Shown piece by piece: positions 22,969 to 35,528 of a DNA stretch of 64,000 nucleotides. Each line of letters opens with the position of its first letter. Positions within the stretch are counted from its first letter, which is position 1. Both the position numbers and the translations under genes were made by a program. The notes beneath the pieces were generated by a model that did not search any database, was not told the DNA's origin, and worked only from the letters and a program-made list of their open reading frames with translations. The DNA is from Candidatus Limnocylindrales bacterium (lineage in GTDB: Bacteria > Chloroflexota > Limnocylindria > Limnocylindrales > CSP1-4), in NCBI GenBank assembly GCA_035688805.1, contig DASSMQ010000006.1, positions 15,012 to 79,011 on the forward strand. The letters run 5' to 3'.

Positions 22969-25900
22969 CTAGCCGAGCCGACGCATGCCGGCATGCCCGA
23001 GCTGTCGGACCCCACCAGGTTGCTCCGGCCCGCCGACCGTGGCGACCACCTCGGGGAGTGGCTTGATGTCGCGAGCGACGAGGTTGACGACCTTGCCTTC
23101 GCGCTGGAGCTCACCATCGACCAGCAGCAGGGCGTGCCGGCGGACCACGCCGCGTAACCGTTCCCAGACGTTCGGCCAGAGGGTCACATTCACCATCCCG
23201 GTCTCGTCCTCGAGCGCCAGGAAGACCGTGCCCTTGGCGGTCATCGGATGCTGCCGGGTGACGACTAGTCCTCCCACCCGGACCCGGCCCGGCCGCCGAT
23301 CGGCCAGTGACGCATTCGGCACCGCCCCGAGTCGATCGAGCGCGGTCCGGAAGAGCCCGACCACCTGCCGGCGGGCATCGACCCCCAGTACCGCATAGGC
23401 GTCACCGACCCGCTCGGACTCGGTGATCGCCGGCAGGTCGGGCGCATCGGTCGCCGGGAGTCGGAGATCCAGCGGCCGGCCCGCTGCCGCGTGCCGCTTG
23501 CCGGCGGCCCGCCCGAGGGCACGGACCGTCCGGCCATCCATCCGACCGCGTGACGCCCCGGCCACCTCGCGCAACTGCCAGAGCAGCTCCCGCCGTGGCC
23601 GGTCCAACGAGTCCATCGCGCCGCTGCGGATGAGTCGCTCGAGCACCTCCTCGGGCAGGCCCGTCCGTTCGACCACGTCGACCAGGTTCCGATACGGGCC
23701 GCGGGCCCGCTCGGCATCGAGCGCTGCCTGGTGCTGCTCCCCGATGCCCTTCACCAGGCCGAGCCCGAGCCGGACCGCCCAGCCGGCGGTCACCGCCGGC
23801 GTCCAGCGCTCCCGCGACGACGCGGAGGGAACGATGCACGCGGAGGAGACGACCGGGTCGGGCTGTGCGTCTGGGCCGATCCACTCGGTCGTCGTCGCGT
23901 AGCACGACGCGTTGACGTCCACGGGCAGCACCGCTACCCCGTGGCGCTTCGTGTCGTTGACCAGGACCTCGACCGGATAGAAGCCCATCGGCTGGGCATT
24001 GATCAGCCCGACCAGGAACTGGGCGGGGTAGAACAGCTTGAGGAAGGCCGACTCGTAGGCGGTCCGGGCGAAGGCCGCCGCGTGCGACTTGGCGAACCCG
24101 AAACTGGCGAACGCGGCGACCTGGCGAAACAGCTCCTCGGCGGTCTCGAGCTCGAGCCCGGGCTGGCGCAGCGCCCCGTCGACGAACCGGTGATGGAGCT
24201 TCTCCATCTCGCGCGATGAACGCCAGGTCCCCATCGCTCGCCGGAAGCCATCCGATTCGGCCGGGCTGAACCCGGCCACCTCGATGGCGATGCGCATGAC
24301 CTGCTCCTGGTAGAGGATCACTCCGAGCGTGTCCTTCAGCACGGGCTCCAGGCTGGGGTGCAGGTAGACGACCGGCTCGAGGCCCTGCTTGCGGCGCAGG
24401 TACGGGTGGACGGCGTTGCCCTGGATCGGCCCGGGTCGGATGATCGCCACCTCGACCACCAGGTCATCGAGCCTGCCCGGCCGCGACTTGGGGAGCGTCT
24501 GCATCTGTGCCCGGCTCTCGACCTGGAAGACGCCCACCGTGTCGGCCGCCTGGAGCATCGCGAAGACCTCGGGCACGTCCTCGGGCAGGCGGTCGAGATC
24601 GAGGCAGACCGCACAGTCATGCTCGATGAGCTGCAGGGTCTCGTCCATCGCGGCGAGCATCCCGAGACCGAGCAGGTCGAGCTTGATGAGCTTGAGCGTC
24701 TCGACGTCGCGCTTGTCGAACTGGACGACCACCCGGTCGGGCATCGTGGCCCGCTCGAGCGGGGCGAGGTCGATGAGGGGGGCGGCCGTGACGAGCATGC
24801 CGCCGCTATGGATGCTGAGGTGACGCGGGAACCCGTCGATCCGGGCGCAGAACTCGAGCCAGCGCTCCCAGTGGGAGAGGCCGACCGTCGAGCCGCCACG
24901 GGCCTGCGGCGGTGGCTCGGGCACGATGCGGGCGACCGAGCTCGCATTCGCTGGGGTCGGCGGGGGATCCCACATGATCGGCCTGCCGAGACGATCGGTC
25001 TTCCGTGGTGGCGGCAGGGTCATGCCGCTCTCCGGATCGACCGGGACGGGTCCCTGGCCCAGCGGGGGTGTGCCATAGCCCGTCCCCCGCCCGGCTCGCA
25101 GCCAGGCCACGCTCGCCGGCGTGTCGCCCGGTCCGCCCTCGTCGTCGGACGGCCCGCGGCGGATCGTCGTGACCGGTGCGAGCGGGTCCTCGCGGAACGC
25201 GGCATCACCACGCTCCGTGGCATTGCCCTCCTCGGTGGTCGATTCCCGGAGCCAGGCGAACGGACGCGGCGCGTCCGGGTCCACCGGGGTCCGCGGCTGC
25301 TTCCACGGTGGCACCTTCCCGATCAGGGGCAGCCGCTTGTTCAACTGGCCCATGCCATCGACCAGCCCGTGCGCCTCCGCCTGTTCGGCCGCGCCGGCCT
25401 CCGGTGGCAGGCCCTCCCCGGATCGTCGGAAGAACTCGGCGAACCCGCCGTCGGCCTCGAGGTCGCGCCGGACCATGACCGAGTCGTACGTCTCGAGCGC
25501 CTTCGCGACCCGATCTACCAGGGGCCGCGGGAAGCCGAGCGCATAGCCCACCTCGCGCACCGCCGAACGCGCCCGGTAGGTGACAAGGTTGCAGACCATC
25601 CCCGTGTGCTCCGGCCCGTAGCGTCGGTAGATGTACTGGATGACCTCCTCGCGCCGAGCCGAGCTGAAGTCGATGTCGACGTCCGGGTACGTCGTCCGAC
25701 CCGGATTGATGAACCGCTCGAACAGGAGGTCGTGGGCGATCGGCTCGACGCGGCTGATCCCGAGGGTGTACGACACGATCGAACTGGTCGCGCTCCCCCG
25801 ACCCTGGGCCGGGATGCCCTGCTCCCTCGCGAAGCGCATCAGGTCCCAGCAGATGAGGAAGAACTCGGCAAGGCCGGCTCGCTCGATGACGTCGAGTTCA

Positions 25901-27072
25901 TGGGCGAGCCGCTTGACCACCGCCGAGGTCAACGGGTGATAGCGCCGCCGTGCGCCGGTCCAGCACAGCTCGGAGAGATGAGAGAACGGTGTCTCACCCT
26001 CAGGGACCGGGAAGCCCGGGAACCGGTACTGCTCGAACCCGAGATCGACCGAGCACGATGCCGCGATCTCGACCGAGTTGGCGATCCCCTCGCGCCAGGC
26101 ACGGGCAGCACTCGACTCGAGCGAGTCGCCGAGCGTTGCCAGCGCCTCGCCCGATTTCAGGAAGGACTCGCCGTCCGGCCGACGCAGATCGGCCAGCGTG
26201 TCGAGCGTCCGGCCGTGTCGGATGGCGGTCAGCACGTCGTGGAACTCGCGGTCGTCGGCCGTCGCGTAATGGACGTCGTTGGTGACCACGACGGGCAGGC
26301 CGAGCTCGATCGCCAGCGCGGCCGATTCGGCGACCAGCCAGTCGTCGTCGGGCAGGAGATGGTGCGACAGCTCGATGAAGAACCCGCTCGTCGACGGGCC
26401 ATCGCCGCGGCCGAAGAGCGTCGCATAGCGCTCGGCGACAGCGCGCGCGCCGGCCCGATCGCCGACCCGCAGGCGTCGCGCGATCTCCCCCTCGCGACAA
26501 GCCGACAGCGCGACCAGGCCATCGTGATCAGCCTCGAGCAGGTCGTGCGTGATGCGCGGCATCGCCTTGGTCCCGGCCAGGTTGGCGTGCGACACCAGGC
26601 GACTCAGGCTGCGCCAGCCGGCAGGGGTCCGGGCGAGGAGCACGAGGTGTGGGCCGCGGGCCCGGTCCCCGACCCCGCGCACATCTTCCTTGACCAGGTC
26701 GCGGTGACCGGGCAGACGGGCGCGATCGGGTCGCGGCCGCACGGGCCGGCCGTCGGTGATCGTCGGCTCGACGGCCGGAGACTCGCCCTGCCGGCGGCGT
26801 GGCCGGCGGCGAGACGGGACCACCACCCGGCCGGGATCGGGCACGGCCGTATCGATCAGGTCGATCTCGGTCCCGACGACGCCAGGGAGGCCAGCCTCCT
26901 CGGCGGCACTCATGAACCGGACGGCGCCGTACAGCCCGTTCCGATCCGTCGCAGCGAGGGCGGTCAGCCCCAGGGCGACGGCCCGCTCGACCAGGTCGTC
27001 CGGCGGCGAGGCGCCATCGAGGAACGAGAAGTTGGTGTGGGCGTGGAGTTCGGCGTATGGGATGGTCGCCAC
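22969..27072 (-). CDS. dnaE2: error-prone DNA polymerase DnaE2 (ImuC) with lineage-specific Pro-rich insertions
   Basis: 1367 aa with a GTG start. The PHP-domain N-terminus is ATIPYAELHAHTNFSFLDGAS and the Pol III alpha core is ...GFPRHLSIHSGGMLVT... There is about 130 aa of extra low-complexity sequence before the GFPRHL motif. Confidence 0.92.
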   Translation of the reverse strand: MATIPYAELHAHTNFSFLDGASPPDDLVERAVALGLTALAATDRNGLYGAVRFMSAAEEAGLPGVVGTEIDLIDTAVPDPGRVVVPSRRRPRRRQGESPAVEPTITDGRPVRPRPDRARLPGHRDLVKEDVRGVGDRARGPHLVLLARTPAGWRSLSRLVSHANLAGTKAMPRITHDLLEADHDGLVALSACREGEIARRLRVGDRAGARAVAERYATLFGRGDGPSTSGFFIELSHHLLPDDDWLVAESAALAIELGLPVVVTNDVHYATADDREFHDVLTAIRHGRTLDTLADLRRPDGESFLKSGEALATLGDSLESSAARAWREGIANSVEIAASCSVDLGFEQYRFPGFPVPEGETPFSHLSELCWTGARRRYHPLTSAVVKRLAHELDVIERAGLAEFFLICWDLMRFAREQGIPAQGRGSATSSIVSYTLGISRVEPIAHDLLFERFINPGRTTYPDVDIDFSSARREEVIQYIYRRYGPEHTGMVCNLVTYRARSAVREVGYALGFPRPLVDRVAKALETYDSVMVRRDLEADGGFAEFFRRSGEGLPPEAGAAEQAEAHGLVDGMGQLNKRLPLIGKVPPWKQPRTPVDPDAPRPFAWLRESTTEEGNATERGDAAFREDPLAPVTTIRRGPSDDEGGPGDTPASVAWLRAGRGTGYGTPPLGQGPVPVDPESGMTLPPPRKTDRLGRPIMWDPPPTPANASSVARIVPEPPPQARGGSTVGLSHWERWLEFCARIDGFPRHLSIHSGGMLVTAAPLIDLAPLERATMPDRVVVQFDKRDVETLKLIKLDLLGLGMLAAMDETLQLIEHDCAVCLDLDRLPEDVPEVFAMLQAADTVGVFQVESRAQMQTLPKSRPGRLDDLVVEVAIIRPGPIQGNAVHPYLRRKQGLEPVVYLHPSLEPVLKDTLGVILYQEQVMRIAIEVAGFSPAESDGFRRAMGTWRSSREMEKLHHRFVDGALRQPGLELETAEELFRQVAAFASFGFAKSHAAAFARTAYESAFLKLFYPAQFLVGLINAQPMGFYPVEVLVNDTKRHGVAVLPVDVNASCYATTTEWIGPDAQPDPVVSSACIVPSASSRERWTPAVTAGWAVRLGLGLVKGIGEQHQAALDAERARGPYRNLVDVVERTGLPEEVLERLIRSGAMDSLDRPRRELLWQLREVAGASRGRMDGRTVRALGRAAGKRHAAAGRPLDLRLPATDAPDLPAITESERVGDAYAVLGVDARRQVVGLFRTALDRLGAVPNASLADRRPGRVRVGGLVVTRQHPMTAKGTVFLALEDETGMVNVTLWPNVWERLRGVVRRHALLLVDGELQREGKVVNLVARDIKPLPEVVATVGGPEQPGGVRQLGHAGMRRLG

Positions 27073-27113
27073 GGCTGCTCCGGTCGGTGGCCGGTCGGAT
27101 CGGGGCGGACAGT

Positions 27114-27131
27114 ATAGAACGCATGTTCTAT
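27114..27131. promoter_or_regulatory. LexA SOS box (Gram-positive Cheo type, GAAC-N4-GTTC) between the divergent dnaE2 and GH18-like genes
   Basis: atAGAACgcatGTTCTat is a perfect palindrome. It lies about 40 to 60 nt upstream of the dnaE2 start and about 56 nt upstream of the GH18-like gene. Confidence 0.75.
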
Positions 27132-27186
27132 CAGGGGAAGCCCACCCATCCGCAGGACCAATGAGGGGCTGGACGACCGCAACTCG

Positions 27187-28725
27187 ATGGGCTTACCTGA
27201 CCGGGTGCGATCGACCCGTCACCGTCGCCATGCCGCCTGGTCTCGCCTCGTCCTCACCCTGACCGCCGCGGTCACGCTCTTGGCCGGGATCGCGGGCCCG
27301 ATCCCCGCTGTCCGGGCCGCGGACATCCGACCGCGGATCACCGGGATCGCGCCCCTGACCCACGAGGTCTACGGGTATCTCCCCTACTGGCGCCTGGATG
27401 CCGGCACGGTCGACCGGCTGCACTACGACCTCGTGTCGACCATCGCGTTCTTCGGCCTCGGGATCCTCGGGACGGGGGCGATCGACACGTCCTGGATCGG
27501 CTATCGGGCGTACATCGGCGACGACGCGGCGGCGGTCACCAATGCCGCCCACGACCACGGGGTTCGGGTCGTTCCCACGTTCCAGCTGTTCGATTCGGCG
27601 ACCGGCGCGCCCAAGATGACGGCGTTCCTCGGCAGTCGGTCGGCGCAGGACCGGTTCATCGGCGAGGCGCTCGACCTCATGGCCGCACGGAGCGCCGACG
27701 GTGCCGGGCTCGACTTCGAACCGGTCGGCGCCCTGGCCGCGCGCGCCTCGGAGTACGTCGCCTTCGTGGCCCGGTTCCGGGGCGCGATGAAGGCCCGCTT
27801 CCCGGGAGCCACGCTGGTGACCGCGACCTCGGCTGGGGCGACCCAGGAGCTCGTCCAGGGTGTCGCCCCATACGTCGATCATCAGATGGTGATGACCTAC
27901 AACTACCGCTCCTCCGGCTCGACGATCGCCGGCGCGGTTGCCCCGCTCGATCACGCGACGAGGAACGTCAAGAAGCACATCACCCGGATGCTGGGCTGGG
28001 TGCCGGCACGCTCCTTGCTGCTCGGCGAGCCCTATTACGGATACGACTGGCCGGTCACCAGCGCCATCCCGAACGCGACGGTCCAGTCGGACAAGTCGAC
28101 CTATGGCCCCGTCCGGAGCGTCACCTACGCCAGTGCCCGCGATTTCCTGGCCGCGCACCCGAGTGTCGTCCGGCGCTACGACTCTCTCGAGGGGAGCGCC
28201 TTCTACTGGTACTACGACAGCACGAAGCGGACCTACCGCGAAGCCTATTTCGACGATGAGCGGAGCCTCGCCGCGAAGGACGACTACGCGATCGCCACCG
28301 GCCTTGGCGGGATCGGCATCTGGACGCTCGACAACGACCGCGGCTACCGGCAGCTGTGGGACGTCCTCCGTTCGAAGTTCTACGCCCCGGTCCTGAGCAT
28401 GTCGGTCCGGGCGTCGGTCAGCGACCTGACCCGGGTATCCGGGGTCGTGTCCGTGGTCGTCCATGCCGGAGCCACGAATACGGGGACCGTGCCGCTGACC
28501 GGATCGCTGCGCTGGGCGATCCGCGACCCAGGTGGCCGAGTCGTGGCCAGCGGTCATTGGCCGACCACCGTCGTCTACCCTGGCCGGAGCACGAGTCACG
28601 CCGTCCGTGCCGCCCTCGGGCTGGCCACCTCCCTGCCAGCCGGCACCTACCACCTTCGGGTGCGGTTCGTGACGTCGACGAAGGCCTACGGGCCGCCGGA
28701 CGTGGCCTTCCGCCAGCCGTACTGA
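27187..28725 (+). CDS. secreted glycoside hydrolase family 18-like protein (chitinase-like; the catalytic motif is degenerate, DGAGLDFE)
   Basis: 512 aa with signal peptide ...LTAAVTLLAGIAGPIPAVRAA. It has a GH18 (beta/alpha)8 barrel with a DxxxxDxE motif, then a C-terminal beta-rich domain. Confidence 0.75.
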   Translation: MGLPDRVRSTRHRRHAAWSRLVLTLTAAVTLLAGIAGPIPAVRAADIRPRITGIAPLTHEVYGYLPYWRLDAGTVDRLHYDLVSTIAFFGLGILGTGAIDTSWIGYRAYIGDDAAAVTNAAHDHGVRVVPTFQLFDSATGAPKMTAFLGSRSAQDRFIGEALDLMAARSADGAGLDFEPVGALAARASEYVAFVARFRGAMKARFPGATLVTATSAGATQELVQGVAPYVDHQMVMTYNYRSSGSTIAGAVAPLDHATRNVKKHITRMLGWVPARSLLLGEPYYGYDWPVTSAIPNATVQSDKSTYGPVRSVTYASARDFLAAHPSVVRRYDSLEGSAFYWYYDSTKRTYREAYFDDERSLAAKDDYAIATGLGGIGIWTLDNDRGYRQLWDVLRSKFYAPVLSMSVRASVSDLTRVSGVVSVVVHAGATNTGTVPLTGSLRWAIRDPGGRVVASGHWPTTVVYPGRSTSHAVRAALGLATSLPAGTYHLRVRFVTSTKAYGPPDVAFRQPY

Positions 28726-28800
28726 CGGGCCCTCCCACGACGGGACCATCGATCCCGCCCACCCGTGCAACAACTCGCCGCGCTCCGGCGTCTCTTGGCC

Positions 28801-28944
28801 ATGCACGCTCCCAGCCACCTCGATCGCCCGCTTCGACCGGCCGCTGCGGCCGCGTTCCGGACGGCCCTCGCGGTGGTGGTGGCGTCGCTGCTGATCCTCG
28901 TCGTCCTCCCCGCGATGCTCGCGGTCCAGGCGACGACGATCTAG
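28801..28944 (+). CDS. candidate 47-aa single-TM peptide
   Basis: It is an ATG..TAG ORF encoding MHAPSHLDRPLRPAAAAAFRTALAVVVASLLILVVLPAMLAVQATTI. The ORF track misses it, and there is no clear RBS. Confidence 0.3.
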   Translation: MHAPSHLDRPLRPAAAAAFRTALAVVVASLLILVVLPAMLAVQATTI

Positions 28945-29050
28945 CACCAACCGACGTCTCGGCGCCTGGGGGCTCGGGACGATCGTCGGCGATCGACTGC
29001 GATAGCCGATCCGCCGACCTGCCGGATCGCTGGTGAGCGAGGATCCGGCC

Positions 29051-29083
29051 ACAGGACCCCGTCGCTGGGGGCGACGGGGTCCT
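29051..29083 (+). terminator. strong hairpin (14-bp perfect GC-rich stem) downstream of the GH18-like gene and peptide 1
   Basis: caggaccccgtcgc-tgggg-gcgacggggtcctg. Confidence 0.5.
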
Positions 29084-29130
29084 GTCACGTCCGGGGGCCG
29101 ATCGGCCCGCAGCCCGTAGACTCATCCGAC

Positions 29131-29670
29131 ATGACATCGCGAACCCGCCGCCTCCTGATGACGATCGTGACGATGGCACTTCTGGGCGGGTGTGGCGGCA
29201 CGTCGCCCGGCAGCCCCGGACCGTCGACTGCCGCGACGGCGACCGCGGCCGCTTCGACGCCGGCCGGGGGACCGAGCACCAGCGCATCGGCCGAACCGAC
29301 CGCCACGACCCCGCGTGCCGGTCCCGCGGTGGGTCAGACCGACACCGACTGGGGCCGGATCTGGGACGCCGTCCCGACCGATTTCCCGCGGTTCCCAGGA
29401 TCGAAGGTCGCCGATGACACGGGCGAGGCGCCGGTCAGCGCCCGGTTCGCGGTCGACGGCGGCGATCCCAAGGCGATGGCCGCCTGGATGCAGTCGGCGA
29501 TGGAGACGGCCGCGTACAGTACGGAGGGCCTCAACGGGCCCCTCGAGGATGGCAGCATGGTCCTCGAATCGGTCGGGGATGGCGGCTGTCGCATCCAGAC
29601 GACGATCGCCCCGCTCGGCGGGACGGTCTTCGTGACGATCCGGTACGGCGCCGCCTGCCCGCTGCACTGA
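29131..29670 (+). CDS. lipoprotein (lipobox LLGGC) with a low-complexity Ala/Thr/Pro linker
   Basis: 179 aa starting MTSRTRRLLMTIVTMALLGGCGG. Confidence 0.65.
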   Translation: MTSRTRRLLMTIVTMALLGGCGGTSPGSPGPSTAATATAAASTPAGGPSTSASAEPTATTPRAGPAVGQTDTDWGRIWDAVPTDFPRFPGSKVADDTGEAPVSARFAVDGGDPKAMAAWMQSAMETAAYSTEGLNGPLEDGSMVLESVGDGGCRIQTTIAPLGGTVFVTIRYGAACPLH

Positions 29671-29691
29671 CCACAGGAGCATCGATCGCGC

Positions 29692-29799
29692 ATGCAGCCC
29701 CGCTCCACCGACTTCCTTGGTGCCGCGCTCCTGGCCATCGTCCTGATCGGGCTGGTGGTGATCCTGTTCGTCGGCAATATCCCGGCGGCCACCGCCTGA
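29692..29799 (+). CDS. candidate 35-aa single-TM peptide
   Basis: An AGGAGC RBS sits about 14 nt upstream. It encodes MQPRSTDFLGAALLAIVLIGLVVILFVGNIPAATA and is paralogous to the next peptide. Confidence 0.4.
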   Translation: MQPRSTDFLGAALLAIVLIGLVVILFVGNIPAATA

Positions 29800-29904
29800 A
29801 TCCGGTAGCTGCGCGCGGTTCTCGTCGCGCGTTGTGCTCGCCCCGCCGCTATGCTGTGGCTGGATCGACCGGGACTTCGGTCCGGACAGGGGGAACGCCG
29901 CTCC

Positions 29905-30009
29905 ATGCAATCGGCACGACCGCGTGATCTGGGTGTCCTCGTCCTCGCGATGGGGGTCCTGCTCGTTCTGTTCGTGGTGAGCCTGACGCTCGGGTCGCCG
30001 TTGCGCTGA
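29905..30009 (+). CDS. candidate 34-aa single-TM peptide
   Basis: An AGGGGGA RBS lies upstream. It encodes MQSARPRDLGVLVLAMGVLLVLFVVSLTLGSPLR. Confidence 0.4.
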   Translation: MQSARPRDLGVLVLAMGVLLVLFVVSLTLGSPLR

Positions 30010-30028
30010 GTCCGGTCCGGCACGGACG

Positions 30029-30277
30029 TCAGTCGTACAGACGTTCGATATGCCAGGTGCCGGCGATCCGGTCGAGATAGACGAGCGCGAGCCAGCGTTC
30101 GCCCACGACCTTCGCGTACTCGCGGGCGATCGGATCGCGCCACCACGACTCATCGACCCGCCAGCGGTTGCACACCTCGACCGCCTCGCGACGCCCGTTC
30201 CAGCGGATGGCGATGAGCCGTCCATCGCCATCGAGCTCGACGTCGATGCGCGGATGCTCGCGCAGGAGGCGGGTCAT
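30029..30277 (-). CDS. 82-aa conserved hypothetical protein translationally coupled to imuB (an alternative start at 30286 gives MAGMTR..)
   Basis: Its ATG overlaps the imuB TGA (ATGA). It encodes MTRLLREHPRIDVELDGDGRLIAIRWNGRREAVEVCNRWRVDESWWRDPIAREYAKVVGERWLALVYLDRIAGTWHIERLYD. Confidence 0.5.
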   Translation of the reverse strand: MTRLLREHPRIDVELDGDGRLIAIRWNGRREAVEVCNRWRVDESWWRDPIAREYAKVVGERWLALVYLDRIAGTWHIERLYD

Positions 30278-31548
30278 GCCGGCCATCCGTCGCGCCCGTC
30301 GTCGGCGAGCCCGACTGAGCGCCACGCCCAGCGTGCTTCCGCCAGCGGCGCCTCCGGGTCGGTGATGGCGACCCGGCGGATGCGATCCTCCCCGTAGGTC
30401 AGCGCCAGCCTCGCCAGCTGCCACCCGAGTCGGGCCGTCCGGGCGGCCTGGGGCACGAACAACGGCAGTTGTTGGCCCGCCGCCGGGGTCGTGCCGCGCA
30501 GTTCCAGGTCGATCCGCTGGACCGCTGCCGGCGGCGGCTGGCGCTCGAGGCGCGCGAACAGCAGACGCTCGACGGCTTCGGGGTCCGCGGTGGGTTCCGG
30601 GAAGCGCTGCTCGACCTCCATCCGCGGCGACGTACCGACCGGCGCGAACGCAAGGTCCAGTTCCAGCGTCAGCACTGCCCGATCCGCGGCGAGCCCTCGA
30701 CCGGTGAGCTGGGCGGCCAGCGCCGCCACTAGGCGATGGAGGACGAACCGGAGCGGCTCGAGCTCCTCGACCGGGGGTTCGATGGGCAGGGCGAGGGCCA
30801 GGCGCTCGGTCGCGTGGCGAGCCCCGAACGGCTCGGTCTCCTCGCCTCGAGCACGAGCATGGAGCCGCGCGCCCTCCTCGCCGAACCGGGCGATCAGCGC
30901 GGATCGCGGGAGGACCGCCACCGCGCCGATCCGACGCAGTCCGAAGCGGGTCAGGCGTGCCCGGACATCGGGGTCGGTGGTGAGCAGCCCGGACGGACGG
31001 TCGGCCAGGAACGCCGCCTCACCCCCGGGTGGGACGATGATCGGACCGTCCGGGGTGGCGGCCAGCGCCGCGACCGAGGCGGCGAACCGGGTGCCGGCGA
31101 TCCCGGCGCGCGGTGACGGCTCCCCGGGGAGGGCGCCTCGCAGCGCCGCACCGGCCCGCTCGATCAGTCGGGGCTCGGCCCCCCACAGCGGCTCGAGCCC
31201 ATCGATCCCGACCTCGAAGAACCCGAATGAGGCCGCCGATGGGTCGCTGGTCCCGGCCAGGCTCGGGCTGGATCGCCCGAGCGCCTCGAACACGGCCTCG
31301 GCAGCTCCCCGATCCGCATCGGGATCGGGGTCGATGAAGGTCGCCTCAGGGACGAGTCGGTGGGCGCTCCCGAGCGGCATCCCGCGTCGGACGCCGAGCG
31401 CCCGAGCTGTCGGATCGGCGTCGAGGACCGGACCCGGATCCCAGGGTCGCCCGCCCAGCACGAGCGGGCCGGTCGGGAAGGGCTCGGAGCGTCGAGCCCG
31501 GGCCAGGTGGAGCGGCAGGTGCGGCACGAACAGGTGCAGACGTCGCAT
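30274..31548 (-). CDS. imuB: ImuB, the Y-family polymerase-like mutasome subunit
   Basis: ORF 30274..32127 is trimmed to the Met of MRRLHLFVPHLPLHLA, which is the typical ImuB/DinB-like N-terminus. Downstream are the motifs ..LGVRRGMPL.. and ..AIAGTRFAASVAA. Confidence 0.78.
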   Translation of the reverse strand: MRRLHLFVPHLPLHLARARRSEPFPTGPLVLGGRPWDPGPVLDADPTARALGVRRGMPLGSAHRLVPEATFIDPDPDADRGAAEAVFEALGRSSPSLAGTSDPSAASFGFFEVGIDGLEPLWGAEPRLIERAGAALRGALPGEPSPRAGIAGTRFAASVAALAATPDGPIIVPPGGEAAFLADRPSGLLTTDPDVRARLTRFGLRRIGAVAVLPRSALIARFGEEGARLHARARGEETEPFGARHATERLALALPIEPPVEELEPLRFVLHRLVAALAAQLTGRGLAADRAVLTLELDLAFAPVGTSPRMEVEQRFPEPTADPEAVERLLFARLERQPPPAAVQRIDLELRGTTPAAGQQLPLFVPQAARTARLGWQLARLALTYGEDRIRRVAITDPEAPLAEARWAWRSVGLADDGRDGWPA

Positions 31549-32719
31549 GGTCGGTCTCGCGATCGGGGGCCTCATGAACGGGGGCGTGGACGGGAGGCGG
31601 CGGAGCGGCCGACAGCCGGAGGTCGACCGGATCGGCCCAGCGGGTGGGTTCCTTGCTTCCCGCGTACGAGCTTGCAGGCACGGCAAGTACCACGGGCGAG
31701 GACCGCGTACGGGCCTCATCTCCGAGCGATCCCTTGCCTTCGGGGCAAGGAACGGCGGCGATGGCCCGGCTATCGGTCGACGGCACCTCATCACTTGCGA
31801 GGACCGCAAGTTCCACGACCATCTCGCCTGGCCGTGCAGCGGTACTTGCCGTGGAGGCAAGCCCTTGCGCCGCGGGCACGTCGAGCGCGTCGAACAGGAG
31901 GGCGTCGTCGGCGAGGCACGCATCGCGCTCACCGCCCTCCGCGTAGAGGATCCGCAGGATGGCTCGGCGTCCCGGCGGACCGTGGCGGTTGTGGGCGACG
32001 AGCGCCTCGGTCCGCTGCCCGACGACGTCCCGGCCGAGACGGACCCAGGACCGCCGAGCGAGCTCCAGCCGGATGCCGGTCGATTGGTCGACCGCGGTCG
32101 TGAGGCCACCGCCCGACCCGGGCGCATCGAGGATCAGGAGCAGCGTCTCCGCCCGCCGGGCGAGAGCGGCGAGTCGATGGAGGCGATCGGCGATCTTCGC
32201 CGGCGTGTCGGTCCTGGCCAGACGGCCACCGGGCAGGTCGATGACGAGCAGGTCGACCGAGCGGCCGGCCAGCAGGCTGCCGGCGATGCCCAGGCCCTCG
32301 TCCAGGCTGGCCGGGGTGATGACCACGAGCCATTCGAGCCGGATGCCGCGGCTGACGGCTTCGACCGGGTCGAAGCTGCGCGACAGGTCCAGCCACGCCA
32401 CGACCGAGCCCTGGGCCTGGGCCTCCGCGGCGACCCGCAGGCTGAGGGTCGTCCGCCCGCTCGAGCCTTCCCCCCGGATCGCGACGCTGGCCGAGGTCGG
32501 CAACCCGCCCGGTCCGAGGATCGCGTCGAGGGCGGCGAAGCCGGTGTGGATGATCCGGTCGGCGGGCCGTGGGTCGGCGGAGGGTGACGGTCCCGGCATC
32601 TCTGTGGGGACCGGTGCCGGAGCCAGGGCCAGGGCGCCGACCACGCTCGGAGCTGCAGCACCCCAGCGGGCCCGGAGGCCCGCGACGGCGGCATCCACAT
32701 CACCCCGACCGGTCGACAT
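31346..32719 (-). CDS. imuA: ImuA (RecA-fold, SulA/ImuA' family). The core is about the first 255 aa. The 3' 200 codons are low-complexity, run through a hairpin-repeat cluster and overlap imuB, so the true stop is uncertain.
   Basis: The RecA-like core reads TGFAALDAILGPGGLPTSASVAIRGEGSSGRTTLSLRVAAEAQAQGSVVAWLDL. A LexA box lies 15 to 30 nt upstream. There is no in-frame stop until 31346. Confidence 0.7.
   Translation of the reverse strand: MSTGRGDVDAAVAGLRARWGAAAPSVVGALALAPAPVPTEMPGPSPSADPRPADRIIHTGFAALDAILGPGGLPTSASVAIRGEGSSGRTTLSLRVAAEAQAQGSVVAWLDLSRSFDPVEAVSRGIRLEWLVVITPASLDEGLGIAGSLLAGRSVDLLVIDLPGGRLARTDTPAKIADRLHRLAALARRAETLLLILDAPGSGGGLTTAVDQSTGIRLELARRSWVRLGRDVVGQRTEALVAHNRHGPPGRRAILRILYAEGGERDACLADDALLFDALDVPAAQGLASTASTAARPGEMVVELAVLASDEVPSTDSRAIAAVPCPEGKGSLGDEARTRSSPVVLAVPASSYAGSKEPTRWADPVDLRLSAAPPPPVHAPVHEAPDRETDHATSAPVRAAPAAPPGPGSTLRALPDRPARAGRATLGSGSGPRRRSDSSGARRPTRDAARERPPTRP
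31664..31861. repeat. cluster of four short hairpins sharing a CTTGC(C)/(G)GCAAG stem at roughly 55 to 60-bp spacing
   Basis: The hairpins are gtacgagCTTGCaggcacgGCAAGtac, cCTTGCCttcggGGCAAGg, aCTTGCgaggaccGCAAGt and CTTGCCgtggaGGCAAG, followed by gcaagcccttgc. The flanking spacers share cctcatc and gaggaccgc. Confidence 0.5.
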
Positions 32720-32732
32720 CGGACGTCGATAG

Positions 32733-32748
32733 TAGAACAGATGTTCTA
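32733..32748. promoter_or_regulatory. LexA SOS box (GAAC-N4-GTTC) upstream of imuA, in the intergenic region shared with the divergent response regulator
   Basis: tAGAACagatGTTCTa is a perfect palindrome, 15 to 30 nt upstream of the imuA ATG. Confidence 0.75.
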
Positions 32749-32816
32749 GTCAGGCAAGCCGTTTCCGTCACCCGATCGACACGAGCGATGGCTAGCCTCG
32801 GCCTACCATGCTGCCG

Positions 32817-33566
32817 ATGCCGACCTCGACCTCCGACCCCGCGGTCCCGACCGCGCCGATCCTCGTCGTCGACGACGACGCGAAGATCGTCCGGCTCGTG
32901 CGGACCTACCTCGAACGGGACGGGTTCTCGGTCGTGACCGCCGCCGACGGCCCGGCCGCGCTCGCCGCGATCGAGGCCCATGCGCCCGCCCTCGTCGTGC
33001 TGGACCTGATGCTCCCCGAACTGGACGGGCGGGCCGTCATCCGGGCCGTCCGCCGCGACGACGAGGCCGGCCGCACGCCGATCCTCGTCCTGTCCGCGCG
33101 TAGCTCGACCATCGACCGGATCGCCGGACTCGAGGATGGGGCCGACGACTACCTGCCCAAGCCGTTCTCACCCGCCGAGCTCGTGCTCCGGGTGAAGTCG
33201 ATCCTGCGCCGTGCGGCGCCGGCCGGGGCAGGCCTGGCGGATGCCCGACGACCATCGACTCCGCTGCTCCGCCACGCCGATCTCACCGTCGACCCGTCCC
33301 GCCACGAGGTCCGCCGCGGCGACGCGGCCATCGACCTCACCCGGGTCGAGTTCAAGCTGCTGTCGACGATCCTGGCGGCGGATGGCCGCGTCCTGTCGCG
33401 CGACCAGCTGCTCGACGCCGTGTACGGCCACGAGGCGGCCGACGTCCTCGACCGGACCATCGACGTGCATGTCCGCCGATTGCGCGACAAGCTCGACGAT
33501 GACCCGGAAGCGCCGCGCTATGTCCAGACCGTGCGCGGCATCGGGTATCGCGCCGCCCGGACGTGA
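32817..33566 (+). CDS. OmpR/PhoB-family response regulator
   Basis: It has a receiver domain (ILVVDDD...LDLMLPELDG...DDYLPKPF) and a winged-helix C-terminus (...IDVHVRRLRDKL...VRGIGYR). Confidence 0.9.
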   Translation: MPTSTSDPAVPTAPILVVDDDAKIVRLVRTYLERDGFSVVTAADGPAALAAIEAHAPALVVLDLMLPELDGRAVIRAVRRDDEAGRTPILVLSARSSTIDRIAGLEDGADDYLPKPFSPAELVLRVKSILRRAAPAGAGLADARRPSTPLLRHADLTVDPSRHEVRRGDAAIDLTRVEFKLLSTILAADGRVLSRDQLLDAVYGHEAADVLDRTIDVHVRRLRDKLDDDPEAPRYVQTVRGIGYRAART

Positions 33567-34627
33567 TCGGTCGAGGTATCGCCGCACGCATCGCCCTGGC
33601 GGCCATCGCGAGCGCCGCGGTCGGCCTGGTCATCCTCGCCATCGGTGTGGCCGTGGTCGGTGGCGGGGTCTTCACCGAGTTGATGATGAAGGCCGGCGAC
33701 TCGGCCGAGCACGCTCGACGGATGTACGACGACTCGGTGGTCACGGTCGTGGTCGCGGCCTCCGCCCTGGCCGTGCTGGCGAGCCTCGGTCTAGCCGTCG
33801 CCCTCGCCCGGATGCTGGCCCGGCCGCTCGACGAGATCAGTGGCGCCGCTCGACGGATCGCCGACGGTGACTACGCGGCCCGCGTCCCGCGCGAGGGGCC
33901 CGAGGAGCTGGCCAGCCTGGCCGACTCATTCAACCAGATGGCCGCTTCGCTCGAGCGTCAGGAGCAGATGCGGCGCGACTTCATCGCCAACGCAGCCCAT
34001 GAGCTACGGACGCCGTTGACCAATCTGCAGGGCTACCTCGAAGCGCTGCGCGACGGCGTCATCGTGGCCGATGCCGCGACCTACGAGTCGCTCCACGAGG
34101 AGGCCGATCGCCTCGTCCGCCTGTCGCGCTCGCTCGACGCGCTCGCGGAGGGCGACGCCGACACGAGCCCGGCGACACGCATCGAGCTCGATCTCGCGGC
34201 TGCGATCCGCTCAGCGATCGACCTCGCCGCGCCGGCGATCGAACGCGCCGGGCTGCGCCTGGAGACCGGCCTTCCCCCCTCGCTGCCGGCCCGGGCGGAT
34301 CCAGACCGGGTCGCCCAGGTCCTCGCCAACCTCCTCTCGAACGCCATCCGGTACACGGCACGCGGCGGCCTGGTCACGGTCCGCGCCGAACGGCGTCCAG
34401 CCGATGTCCTGGTCTCGGTGACGAATACCGGCGACTCGATCCCGGCCGACGACCTCGATCGGGTATTCGAGCGGTTCTACCGGGTCGAGAAGTCACGCGA
34501 TCGCGCTCGGGGAGGCGCCGGCATCGGGCTGGCCATCGTGAAGCAGCTGGTCGAATCGGGCGGCGGTCGAGTCGGCGCCGAATCGGCTGAAGGTCAGACG
34601 CGCTTCTGGTTCAGCATCCCGGCCTGA
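33563..34627 (+). CDS. sensor histidine kinase (2 TM, HAMP, HisKA, HATPase_c)
   Basis: It has the H-box ANAAHELRTPL, the N-box LLSNAIRYT and the G-boxes GGAGIGLAIVKQL. Its start overlaps the response regulator's stop. Confidence 0.9.
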   Translation: MIGRGIAARIALAAIASAAVGLVILAIGVAVVGGGVFTELMMKAGDSAEHARRMYDDSVVTVVVAASALAVLASLGLAVALARMLARPLDEISGAARRIADGDYAARVPREGPEELASLADSFNQMAASLERQEQMRRDFIANAAHELRTPLTNLQGYLEALRDGVIVADAATYESLHEEADRLVRLSRSLDALAEGDADTSPATRIELDLAAAIRSAIDLAAPAIERAGLRLETGLPPSLPARADPDRVAQVLANLLSNAIRYTARGGLVTVRAERRPADVLVSVTNTGDSIPADDLDRVFERFYRVEKSRDRARGGAGIGLAIVKQLVESGGGRVGAESAEGQTRFWFSIPA

Positions 34628-34637
34628 TCCAGTCTGT

Positions 34638-35528
34638 CTACGGGAGCGCGATCGCGACCAACCCGACGAACACGCCGGCGAGGCCGACCCACTGGATCGG
34701 CCGCAGGCGTTCGCCGAGCAGGGCCACGGCGACGATGATCGTGACCGTCGGCCCGAACGATGAGGCCAGGCCGACGAGCCACGTCTCGGCGTGTTCGAGC
34801 CCGTAGGCGAACGAGGCGAGGCCCACGACATCGAGCAGCCCCGCGAGCGCGATCGCGCCGAACGTACGAGCGTGCGCGCCACCCGTTCCTTCAAGGGCCG
34901 GACCGGCGTGGCCGCGCAGGACCGTCGACGCCACCACCAGCACGACGGTCGACAGCAGCGCGTTGGCGGTGCGCGACACGAGCACGACCTCCAGCCATGG
35001 CGCGCGGTCGATGACGATGTCGCTGCCGATACTCATCGACGCGAACAGGACGAGGGCGACGACCGCGAAGACCACCCCCGGACTCGCAAACCGTGTCCCA
35101 CGCAACCCTTGGTCGAATGCCACACCCGTCATCACGACGCCGATCGTCGCCACGGCAGCGCCCACCCCCTGCAGCGGGGTCAGCGTCTCGCCCCGGACCA
35201 CGACCGCCAGCACGACCGTCAGGCCCCCATAAGCCGCGACCATCCCGCTGACGACGGCGATCGGCCCGATCCGAAGGCCGGTGAAATAGGACAGGTAGGC
35301 GCCGGCGCCGGCCAGGCCGACCAGGGCACCGCCGACGAGGACGAAGGGGTCCCCTGAGATCGTGGTCCCGGTCGCGATCGCCGCGATCCACACGAAGACC
35401 GCCCCGACGACCTGCATCCCAGCGGTCACCACCAGGCTGCCGACCCGTCGGCTGGCCAGCGCGGAGAAGAGATCGAGCGTGCCCCACGACAGGGCCGCAC
35501 CGAGCCCGGTGAGCAGGCCAAGCGGCAT
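34638..35528 (-). CDS. DMT-superfamily (EamA-like) transporter
   Basis: 296 aa with 10 predicted TM segments and a duplicated EamA architecture. Confidence 0.8.
   Translation of the reverse strand: MPLGLLTGLGAALSWGTLDLFSALASRRVGSLVVTAGMQVVGAVFVWIAAIATGTTISGDPFVLVGGALVGLAGAGAYLSYFTGLRIGPIAVVSGMVAAYGGLTVVLAVVVRGETLTPLQGVGAAVATIGVVMTGVAFDQGLRGTRFASPGVVFAVVALVLFASMSIGSDIVIDRAPWLEVVLVSRTANALLSTVVLVVASTVLRGHAGPALEGTGGAHARTFGAIALAGLLDVVGLASFAYGLEHAETWLVGLASSFGPTVTIIVAVALLGERLRPIQWVGLAGVFVGLVAIALP

Follow-up and report, generated by a model that had tools for sequence, protein, structure and literature searches.

A 64,000-nucleotide stretch of DNA from Candidatus Limnocylindrales (the window, here and below, is this whole stretch) carries three very small open reading frames between two LexA boxes, which raises the question of whether they are genes at all and, if they are, whether they answer to DNA damage. 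The frames and their translations are exactly as given in the preliminary description of the locus: pep47 (47 amino acids; 28801-28944), pep35 (35 amino acids; 29692-29799), and pep34 (34 amino acids; 29905-30009), all on the plus strand. Each peptide has one strong hydrophobic segment (19-residue Kyte-Doolittle mean of 2.9-3.2) followed by a C-terminal tail of 5-8 residues, and the charge on the N-terminal side of the segment is +1 in pep47 and pep34 and zero in pep35. The topology we infer places the N-terminus inside and the short C-terminal tail outside. Searches of Pfam with the three peptides and with two neighboring gene products, a lipoprotein and the 85-residue orf85, returned no family at or above threshold, and hence no toxin family, in keeping with the earlier statement that the peptides have no sequence similarity to TisB or other type I toxins.

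Spurious frames abound in high-GC genomes, and 51 open reading frames of at least 25 amino acids overlap positions 27000-32000 here, which is the starting point for reading these three as chance frames or as sequence conserved at the nucleotide level only. Against this, a scan of all 194 start-to-stop frames of 30-60 amino acids, in six frames across the whole window, found exactly three that reached the cut-off for a transmembrane-grade segment (Kyte-Doolittle value of at least 2.2), and these are pep47, pep35, and pep34; as the sole such frames among 194, they place the hydrophobic feature far from chance. Composition is of the coding type in all three (GC3 of 0.77-0.90 and GC2 of 0.43-0.50). 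Homologues were recovered by tblastn at the same syntenic position with E-values down to 1e-16, and the frames are kept as frames in about 90 related Limnocylindria loci, with fixed starts and stops, Shine-Dalgarno (SD) sites conserved for pep35 and pep34, and substitutions that follow codon periodicity; frame-breaking indels were seen only in L021 and L057. These observations bear out the earlier argument that the hydrophobic stretches were selected rather than produced by chance. The chance reading is effectively refuted and retains next to no probability: pep47, pep35, and pep34 are each a genuine, conserved gene that encodes a single-pass membrane peptide.

A syntenic, in-frame homologue is present for pep34 in 43 genome loci, for pep47 in 41, and for pep35 in 7-8. 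The peptides are single-copy and their synteny is fixed throughout the class, across a span over which GH18 is 45-69% and DnaE2 62-84% identical. Raw pN/pS is 0.39 for pep34 and 0.57-0.62 for pep35 and pep47, the latter values indicating moderate constraint only, and one contig of 99.4% identity (L209) carries the peptides and the RNA described below without a single substitution and therefore adds no dN/dS information. In protein databases, pep34 is represented by more than 800 clusters and pep47 by more than 1,100, all of them “hypothetical” and without a Pfam family, and a pep34 search of 1.84 billion representatives matched 109 clusters, all small proteins. As far as sampled, the peptide families are restricted to the Chloroflexota class Limnocylindria. 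Small single-pass membrane proteins are already known as a kind, but these families are uncharacterised and new.

Both LexA boxes are perfect. The first, GAACGCATGTTC (core TATAGAACGCATGTTCTATC; 27117-27128), has the form GAAC-N4-GTTC and lies in the divergent intergenic region between dnaE2 and GH18, where it is the dnaE2 operator, and the second, GAACAGATGTTC (32735-32746), lies upstream of imuA. Nearly every one of 58 related loci has exactly two boxes, one 12-60 nt before dnaE2 and the other about 16 nt before imuA, and none of the 58 has a box upstream of any peptide or in the peptide module. The position of the peptides between two LexA boxes was thus correctly noted, but the boxes are the operators of the two minus-strand operons on either side, one each, and the SOS link left for the peptides is positional only. 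A near-LexA box at 30035-30046, GTACAGACGTTC, falls inside the final codons of orf85, lacks conservation among the few relatives seen, and was set aside as a coding coincidence.

The module lies inside a split imuA-imuB-orf85/dnaE2 mutasome cassette and runs opposite to it, between dnaE2 and imuB, in all loci but one, a count that covers about 60 genome loci, 8 further contigs, and 30 metagenome contigs. In the exception, L045, the lipoprotein, the RNA, and a pep35-like gene stand away from any dnaE2 or imuB. Five loci (L030, L035, L037, L043, and L059) have kept the mutasome cassette and lost all three peptides. The wider neighborhood, with a response regulator, a histidine kinase, and EamA, is syntenic as well, so the position of the module may simply be inherited.

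The likeness to SOS-induced toxins of the TisB/type I class that was initially proposed is not supported by this comparison, as the boxes serve dnaE2 and imuA-imuB, the module has none, and the peptides are single-copy and class-wide. In its full form, the proposal would make these genes type I toxin-antitoxin loci like TisB/IstR, with toxic membrane peptides curbed by antisense RNAs; it can point to short, hydrophobic peptides, to the structured 5' UTR ahead of pep34, and to a convergent orf85 transcript that might supply the antisense RNA. Type I toxins, however, are patchy and multicopy, whereas the peptides here are single-copy, hold a fixed synteny, and are under purifying selection; TisB is SOS-induced, whereas the peptides here are without a LexA box; and for the antitoxin RNA that TisB/IstR-1 would call for, the one relevant observation is the stop of the convergent orf85, 19 nt from that of pep34. 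As the conserved SD sites are, moreover, strong and exposed, and Pfam shows no likeness to known toxin families, we consider toxin-antitoxin loci highly improbable.

A consensus scan of 26900-30500 for sigma-70 promoters and intrinsic terminators returned no sites, and the organism evidently uses other signals, namely ECF-type motifs, TAnnnT-only hexamers, and terminators without a U-tract. Ahead of pep47 lies GCAAC-N17-CGTCTC (28767-28794, plus strand), which ends 6 nt before the ATG and occurs once in the 64-kb window, compared with an average of 0.6 in shuffled sequence. In about 50 loci, G[AC]AAC-N17-CGTCTC is found once after GH18, and its spacing to the pep47 ATG is invariant. The hallmark of ECF promoters is AAC at -35 and CGTC at -10 (PMC5758882), and, judged by the consensus from that source, the region upstream of pep47 has both, conserved among orthologues and with a gap within the 16-17 nt expected. 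The motif thus looks like an ECF-sigma promoter, while it could in principle be bound by another factor; a search for an ECF sigma gene near the module, by tblastn with E. coli RpoE as the query, found nothing in the window at E <= 1.

The product of pep47 is a tail-anchored-like single-pass peptide whose homologues, in 41 loci, begin about 90 nt past the GH18 stop; of 36 loci, 35 start with ATG, and there is no SD. A purine-rich ribosome-binding site had been assigned to each of the three frames; this stands for pep35 (AGGAG, 29675-29679) and pep34 (GGGGGAA, 29889-29895) but not for pep47, whose upstream sequence (cgtctcttggccATG) contains no SD. A promoter motif that ends 6 nt before the ATG, with no ribosome-binding site, suggests a leaderless mRNA, from which pep47 is probably translated. 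A longer, 59-residue reading from a GTG at 28765 was rejected, as the extension is not conserved, overlaps the promoter motif, and contains stops in relatives, including one inside the upstream motif in L019 that excludes it.

Right after pep47 lies a conserved structured RNA of about 140 nt (28955-29095, plus strand), defined by a covariance model, covariation, and minimum free energy (MFE) folds, with four hairpins whose loops are UGGG, GCGAU-type, GUGAG, and UGGG. The covariance model scores 117.7 bits at this position and detects the RNA in 59 further loci, a single copy in each. The RNA was also found on 30 metagenome contigs by RNA pattern alone; of 80 loci checked after the pattern search, 50, or roughly two thirds, were false matches, which the covariance model filtered out. 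In the alignment, 88% of paired cells can pair compared with about 40% in slid controls, double changes occur at 38 of the 51 base pairs, and when the sequences are folded singly by MFE, 36 of 45 form these same hairpins. RNAalifold, run on a MAFFT alignment, proposed a long-range pairing of two invariant segments, which was rejected because the single-sequence folds and the covariation back four local hairpins. As a cmscan of 26500-33000 against Rfam gave no match at E <= 1, this is a new RNA, supported by covariation and absent from Rfam. Its last, GC-rich hairpin is probably a terminator.

The pep47 frame and the RNA are both conserved, contiguous, and 3' of one promoter motif, an arrangement that suggests that the pep47 transcript includes the RNA as its 3' domain. 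The RNA is also present without the pep47 frame in at least 13 species, which would make the frame an add-on to the RNA, and the pep47 stop lies 10 nt before hairpin P1 (28944 vs 28955), so that a terminating ribosome would melt P1. Both points favor a reading in which pep47 is mainly a cis-acting leader frame whose translation remodels the downstream RNA, the peptide itself being unimportant. This is distinctly unlikely given that amino acids are conserved beyond the frame: residues R20, I32, and P37 vary hardly or not at all, LILVxLPAVLxxQA is a recurring consensus, the second codon position is better conserved than the other two, and the more than 1,100 clusters have a common architecture. 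SgrS/SgrT, RNAIII/delta-haemolysin, SR1/SR1P, and AzuCR are dual-function RNAs that encode a small protein. The pep47 unit resembles them in that one short putative transcript would join a small frame to a conserved RNA domain that relatives also have without the frame; unlike dual-function RNAs with regulatory activity, however, the RNA here could be merely a structured 3' UTR plus terminator.

Downstream on the same strand is the lipoprotein gene (29131-29670), whose 179-residue product has a lipobox, a low-complexity linker, and a globular domain of about 110 residues with a DcrB/PsbP-like fold. Its identity to DcrB, an enterobacterial inner-membrane lipoprotein with a Mog1/PsbP-like fold, is only 7%, a likeness at the level of the fold, and because many envelope lipoproteins (LppA, LpqN, BamC) have this fold, it is not specific to DcrB. 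A -10-like hexamer on the plus strand, TAGACT (29117-29122), stands 8 nt before the lipoprotein ATG as the putative promoter of a leaderless lipoprotein-pep35 transcript, and 19 of 32 loci carry a TAnnnT hexamer 5-8 nt ahead of the lipoprotein start codon. The single-pass peptide pep35 begins 21 nt past the lipoprotein stop; it is directly 3' of the lipoprotein in 7 genome loci and 5 metagenome contigs, with a weak match in L045, and the SD AGGAG precedes it in every locus or contig that carries it. Its paralogy with pep34, previously called clear, is at most suggested by the profile-profile comparison (P = 4.8e-4, probability 32%), while the two peptides do have an R-P/x-R-D-x-G motif in common and L046 has an intermediate sequence.

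The third peptide, pep34, has an upstream region of its own (29850-29904, plus strand) with a -10-like TATGCT (29850-29855), a 5'-UTR hairpin, and its SD. The consensus cTAtgCT and the hairpin are found upstream of pep34 in 43 loci, and in at least 13 loci or species the hexamer belongs to a complete G[ACT]AAC-N17-CGTCT motif; in this window there is TATGCT only, with no AAC -35 element. Conservation extends to the SD (GGGGGAGG), which lies 6-12 nt ahead of the start, and the starts it leads are ATG in 20 cases, GTG in 20, and TTG in 2, in contrast to the almost uniform ATG of pep47, which has no SD. The peptide itself (MQxxRPRDxG, a transmembrane segment, then GxPxR) occupies the same position in 43 genome loci, is 32-35 residues long in 41 of them, and has mismatches by codon position of 0.30/0.125/0.50. 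A 52-residue reading from an ATG at 29851 was rejected, as the extension is not conserved, meets stops in relatives, and overlaps the promoter motif; sub-threshold Pfam matches, to DUF2970 and BrkB, were obtained for this reading only. Convergent with pep34, across a gap of 19 nt, is orf85 (30029-30286, minus strand), a conserved 85-residue gene at the end of the imuA-imuB operon that is 73-88% identical across about 55 loci. In about 20 loci the stops of the two genes are 3-51 nt apart, and their transcripts must therefore overlap at the 3' ends.

This overlap is one of several grounds for seeing the peptides as SOS-linked small membrane effectors, induced by DNA damage either through read-through from the LexA-controlled dnaE2/GH18 region or through interference from convergent imuA-imuB-orf85 transcription. 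Very small, single-pass membrane proteins that inhibit division upon DNA damage include SidA (29 amino acids) and DidA of Caulobacter, YneA of B. subtilis, and SosA of S. aureus (PMC6051672, PMC4211646), and small proteins with a single transmembrane segment are the common SOS division inhibitors (PMC6051672). Like them, the peptides here are very small and single-pass and their genes adjoin SOS genes, between dnaE2 and imuB everywhere but in L045; there is no sequence similarity. No terminator was found between GH18 and pep47, and the dnaE2 LexA box stands in the intergenic region that also borders GH18, so SOS-controlled read-through could occur; in loci lacking GH18, a LexA box lies 25-80 nt upstream of the pep47 promoter. 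The promoters of SidA, YneA, and SosA are controlled by LexA, however (DidA is SOS-independent), whereas the peptide promoters here are of the ECF or TAnnnT type: they are conserved, non-LexA motifs of the peptides' own, and in no locus does a LexA box overlap or follow the -35 of a peptide promoter. With the cassette kept without peptides in five loci, the lipoprotein, RNA, and pep35-like gene away from it in L045, and the wider neighborhood syntenic, we regard damage-induced effectors as unlikely, with a small but appreciable chance of being right.

We favor, with fair though far from complete confidence, a plus-strand module for the cell envelope, made of three transcription units that supply small membrane proteins and not LexA-controlled toxins. 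In unit 1, an ECF-sigma-type promoter would fire 6-8 nt upstream of the pep47 ATG, or at it, and yield a leaderless mRNA with the four-hairpin RNA of about 140 nt as its 3' part, terminated by the last hairpin; in some species, this promoter would drive the RNA alone. Unit 2 would be the leaderless DcrB-like lipoprotein gene followed by pep35 with its own SD, and unit 3 would be pep34 with its own promoter, 5'-UTR hairpin, and strong SD. The most likely role of the peptides would be as small membrane modulators or partners of the lipoprotein in an envelope-stress (ECF) response. The ECF envelope-stress regulons of B. subtilis (sigma-W/M/X/V) and E. coli (sigma-E) have the same AAC at -35, CGTC at -10, and 17-nt gap (PMC5758882), and their cargo likewise comprises small membrane proteins, a lipoprotein, and a small structured RNA, such as the E. 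coli sigma-E sRNAs MicA, RybB, and MicL. Unlike in those regulons, the first gene here would be leaderless and the host is a member of the Chloroflexota.

The strict embedding in the mutasome cassette hints at a DNA-damage link that the envelope model leaves unexplained. A more elaborate scheme can also be drawn up: an ECF-controlled dual-function RNA, antisense inside the SOS mutagenesis operon, would join the leaderless mRNA of a 41-47-residue membrane peptide to a four-hairpin riboregulator with UGGG tetraloops, alongside two more micro-membrane-proteins and the DcrB-like lipoprotein, and convergent transcription or RNA-RNA interplay would link envelope stress with ImuA-ImuB-DnaE2 mutasome expression, in one direction or the other. 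We hold this to be rather unlikely. For the envelope module that we prefer, the question it raises is why it is locked inside a damage-inducible mutagenesis cassette.

Proteins of fewer than 50 residues are routinely missed or left unannotated, and the three described here are conserved across an abundant class of uncultured soil and freshwater bacteria. Their module carries clear regulatory signals (an ECF-type promoter, starts that appear leaderless, and a new RNA) and offers concrete entry points into envelope-stress signalling in Chloroflexota. The analysis also corrects a tempting mis-annotation of the peptides as SOS toxins, along with spurious names in databases, an example being “tetrahydromethanopterin S-methyltransferase subunit G”.

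The three tiny reading frames pep47 (28801-28944), pep35 (29692-29799) and pep34 (29905-30009), all on the + strand of the window, translate exactly as stated in the preliminary description of this DNA, into peptides of 47, 35 and 34 amino acids. Of the 194 start-to-stop ORFs of 30-60 amino acids found in the six frames of the 64-kb window, these three are the only ones with a mean Kyte-Doolittle hydropathy of at least 2.2 over 19 residues, and they retain local coding composition (GC3 0.77-0.90, GC2 0.43-0.50) in a window with 70.8% GC. The charge N-terminal to the hydrophobic segment is +1 in pep47 and pep34 and zero in pep35, and the tail behind it is 5-8 residues long; as net-positive charge precedes and a short tail follows the segment, an N-in, C-out single-pass topology is predicted.

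A scan with the neighboring GH18 glycosidase yielded 80 related loci from different species, and its relatives place the source of the window in the Chloroflexota class Limnocylindria. HMMs built on tblastn-derived alignments matched pep34 in 43 loci, pep47 in 41, and pep35 in seven plus one weak case; all matches were syntenic, with none elsewhere in the ~1.2 Mb searched. The gene order dnaE2(-), GH18, pep47, lipoprotein, [pep35], pep34, orf85, imuB, imuA(-) is kept in about 55 loci. Homologues of pep34 are 32-35 amino acids long in 41 of 43 cases, start with ATG (20), GTG (20) or TTG (2) in a constant start and stop register, and share the consensus MQxxRPRDxGALxLVVGxFLILFVVxLTLGxPxR. Pairwise differences at codon positions 1, 2 and 3 (0.30, 0.125 and 0.50) show coding periodicity in pep34, and raw pN/pS is 0.39 for pep34, 0.57 for pep35 and 0.62 for pep47. 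With hydropathy outliers, syntenic in-frame conservation and codon periodicity combined, the three ORFs are more than chance and are real, selected genes for single-TM small proteins.

Among 5.8 billion proteins, profile searches recovered over 800 pep34 clusters and over 1,100 pep47 clusters, all “hypothetical” and without a Pfam domain. A few entries among the pep34 homologues (P0126, P0160, P0199, P0240) carry the name “tetrahydromethanopterin S-methyltransferase subunit G”, which almost certainly arose from a spurious match to a TM helix. When searched against 1.84 billion representatives, the pep34/35 profile hit 109 clusters; as all but one of these are 26-91 amino acids long (the other has 215), the family is a stand-alone micro-protein rather than part of a larger protein. 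The earlier view that pep34 and pep35 are clearly paralogous is plausible but overstated: hhalign gives P = 4.8e-4 with a probability of 32%, a weak link to which a common RPRDxG motif and a bridging sequence in one related locus (L046) are added.

A ribosome-binding site had been assigned to each peptide, and this stands for pep34 (GGGGGAGG) and pep35 (AGGAG), whose Shine-Dalgarno sites are conserved, but not for pep47, which lacks one. Upstream of pep47 there is instead an invariant G[AC]AAC-N17-CGTCTC ending 6-7 nt before the ATG (in the window GCAAC-N17-CGTCTC, 28767-28794, + strand, 6 nt). This motif occurs once in the window (0.6 in shuffles) and as a single copy at the same position in about 50 loci. 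ECF-sigma promoters are typified by “AAC” at -35 and “CGT(C)” at -10 (PMC5758882); no cognate sigma factor was found within the window. An N-terminally extended pep47 ORF was ruled out by a stop codon within the motif region of one relative (L019), so that conservation here is at the nucleotide level. The motif-to-ATG geometry implies a leaderless pep47 mRNA, in agreement with the near-exclusive use of ATG (35 of 36 loci). A second motif copy lies 75-90 nt upstream of pep34 in at least 13 species; the window keeps only the -10-like TATGCT there (29850-29855, +), followed by a hairpin and the Shine-Dalgarno site. The lipoprotein gene (29131-29670, +, 179 amino acids) is probably also leaderless with its own promoter, as a TAnnnT hexamer lies 5-8 nt before its ATG or GTG start in 19 of 32 loci (TAGACT in the window, 29117-29122, +, 8 nt before the start). 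These recurring hexamers suggest that leaderless transcripts are common in the class.

Over the 140 nt that follow the pep47 stop codon (28955-29095, +), both sequence and structure are conserved. Independent MFE folds gave the identical four hairpins in 36 of 45 orthologues at about -90 kcal/mol, with the loops UGGG, GCGAU/CGA, GUGAG and UGGG in most relatives (the second is GAUA in the window). A covariance model found exactly one strong copy per locus in the window (117.7 bits) and in 59 further loci, in every case on the + strand. In the model alignment, which was itself fitted to the model, 88% of cells pair compared to ~40% with slid partners, 38 of 51 pairs changed on both sides, and the covariation score is 0.337 versus ~0.06. 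Compensatory changes extend over about 90 loci in all, and the U-G wobbles are valid on the + strand only. Rfam contains no match at E <= 1 to this new RNA. In at least 13 species the promoter leads directly into the RNA with no ORF (~140 nt from the putative transcription start to the last hairpin end), whereas in the window and ~35 others pep47 intervenes and the transcript would be 265-290 nt; in five species the RNA stands alone between GH18 and orf85. As the same 3' domain is also found as an ORF-less RNA, pep47 appears to be the protein-coding portion of a short transcript of ECF type; the 3' domain of this transcript may be regulatory or only a structured terminator. A few species (L062 9112-9143, 9736-9855 and ~12111; L001 ~9388; L044 9512-9653) have additional incomplete copies of the RNA, or of its last hairpin, downstream of the main one, which suggests that the element has duplicated locally.

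The model best supported by these data is a conserved module, inferred to act in the envelope, of three genuine micro-membrane-proteins, a DcrB-like lipoprotein and the RNA. It would be driven by the ECF-type promoter and leaderless starts, and it sits antisense within a split imuA-imuB/dnaE2 cassette. The preliminary observation is essentially right apart from the pep47 ribosome-binding site and the strength of the paralogy. Its reading of the peptides as SOS-induced, TisB-type (type I) toxins is unsupported, as the LexA boxes belong to dnaE2 and imuA and the peptides have their own signals. Perfect boxes (TAGAAC-N4-GTTCTA) number almost always exactly two in each of 58 related loci, with one preceding dnaE2 by 12-60 nt, the other preceding imuA by ~16 nt, and none inside the peptide module. 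In the window they lie at 27117-27128, beside dnaE2 (22969-27072, -), and at 32735-32746, beside the RecA-like imuA (31346-32719, -); the split cassette (22969-32746) thus has a perfect box for dnaE2 and one for imuA-imuB-orf85.

The module lies between dnaE2 and imuB (30274-32127, -) in nearly every context examined: the GH18-selected genomes, contigs found through pep34, and 30 metagenome contigs for which the RNA pattern was the sole search criterion and which the covariance model confirmed. Apart from this constant position, nothing supports a link to DNA damage. Against it, the flanking response regulator, histidine kinase and EamA transporter genes (32808-35528, divergent from imuA) are equally syntenic, in all long contigs examined, and several species have kept the cassette but lost the peptides; inherited gene order is therefore the simpler reading. 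The sole exception in placement is L045 (6959-9389), where GH18, the lipoprotein, a pep35-like ORF (MRLRPMEIVGPLLLMAILTGLLLLLVVASLPRS) and an RNA that matches less strongly (56 bits) adjoin galK (galactokinase), with no mutasome genes at the locus. GH18 (27187-28725, +, in the window) is absent from about half of the metagenome contigs; dnaE2 and pep47 are then directly divergent, with the LexA box 25-80 nt upstream of the ECF -35 element. The opposite-orientation island between the cassette halves is variable, with GH18, DUF4260, TetR and RraB-like genes coming and going.

At the other end, orf85 (30029-30286, -) encodes 85 amino acids, with 73-88% identity across ~55 species and no Pfam family. 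As it always directly follows imuB and overlaps its stop codon, it is probably an uncharacterized third member of the imuA-imuB operon. The stop codons of pep34 and orf85 converge with only 3-51 nt between them in ~20 loci (including L005, L027, L029, L031, L041 and L060), so that the 3' ends of the two transcripts must overlap; in the window (30007-30031) the gap is 19 nt, with a weak hairpin, GTCCG..CGGAC. Finally, the five + strand gene starts (27187, 28801, 29131, 29692 and 29905) share one reading frame (coordinate mod 3 = 1), which is probably a coincidence of ~1 in 81.
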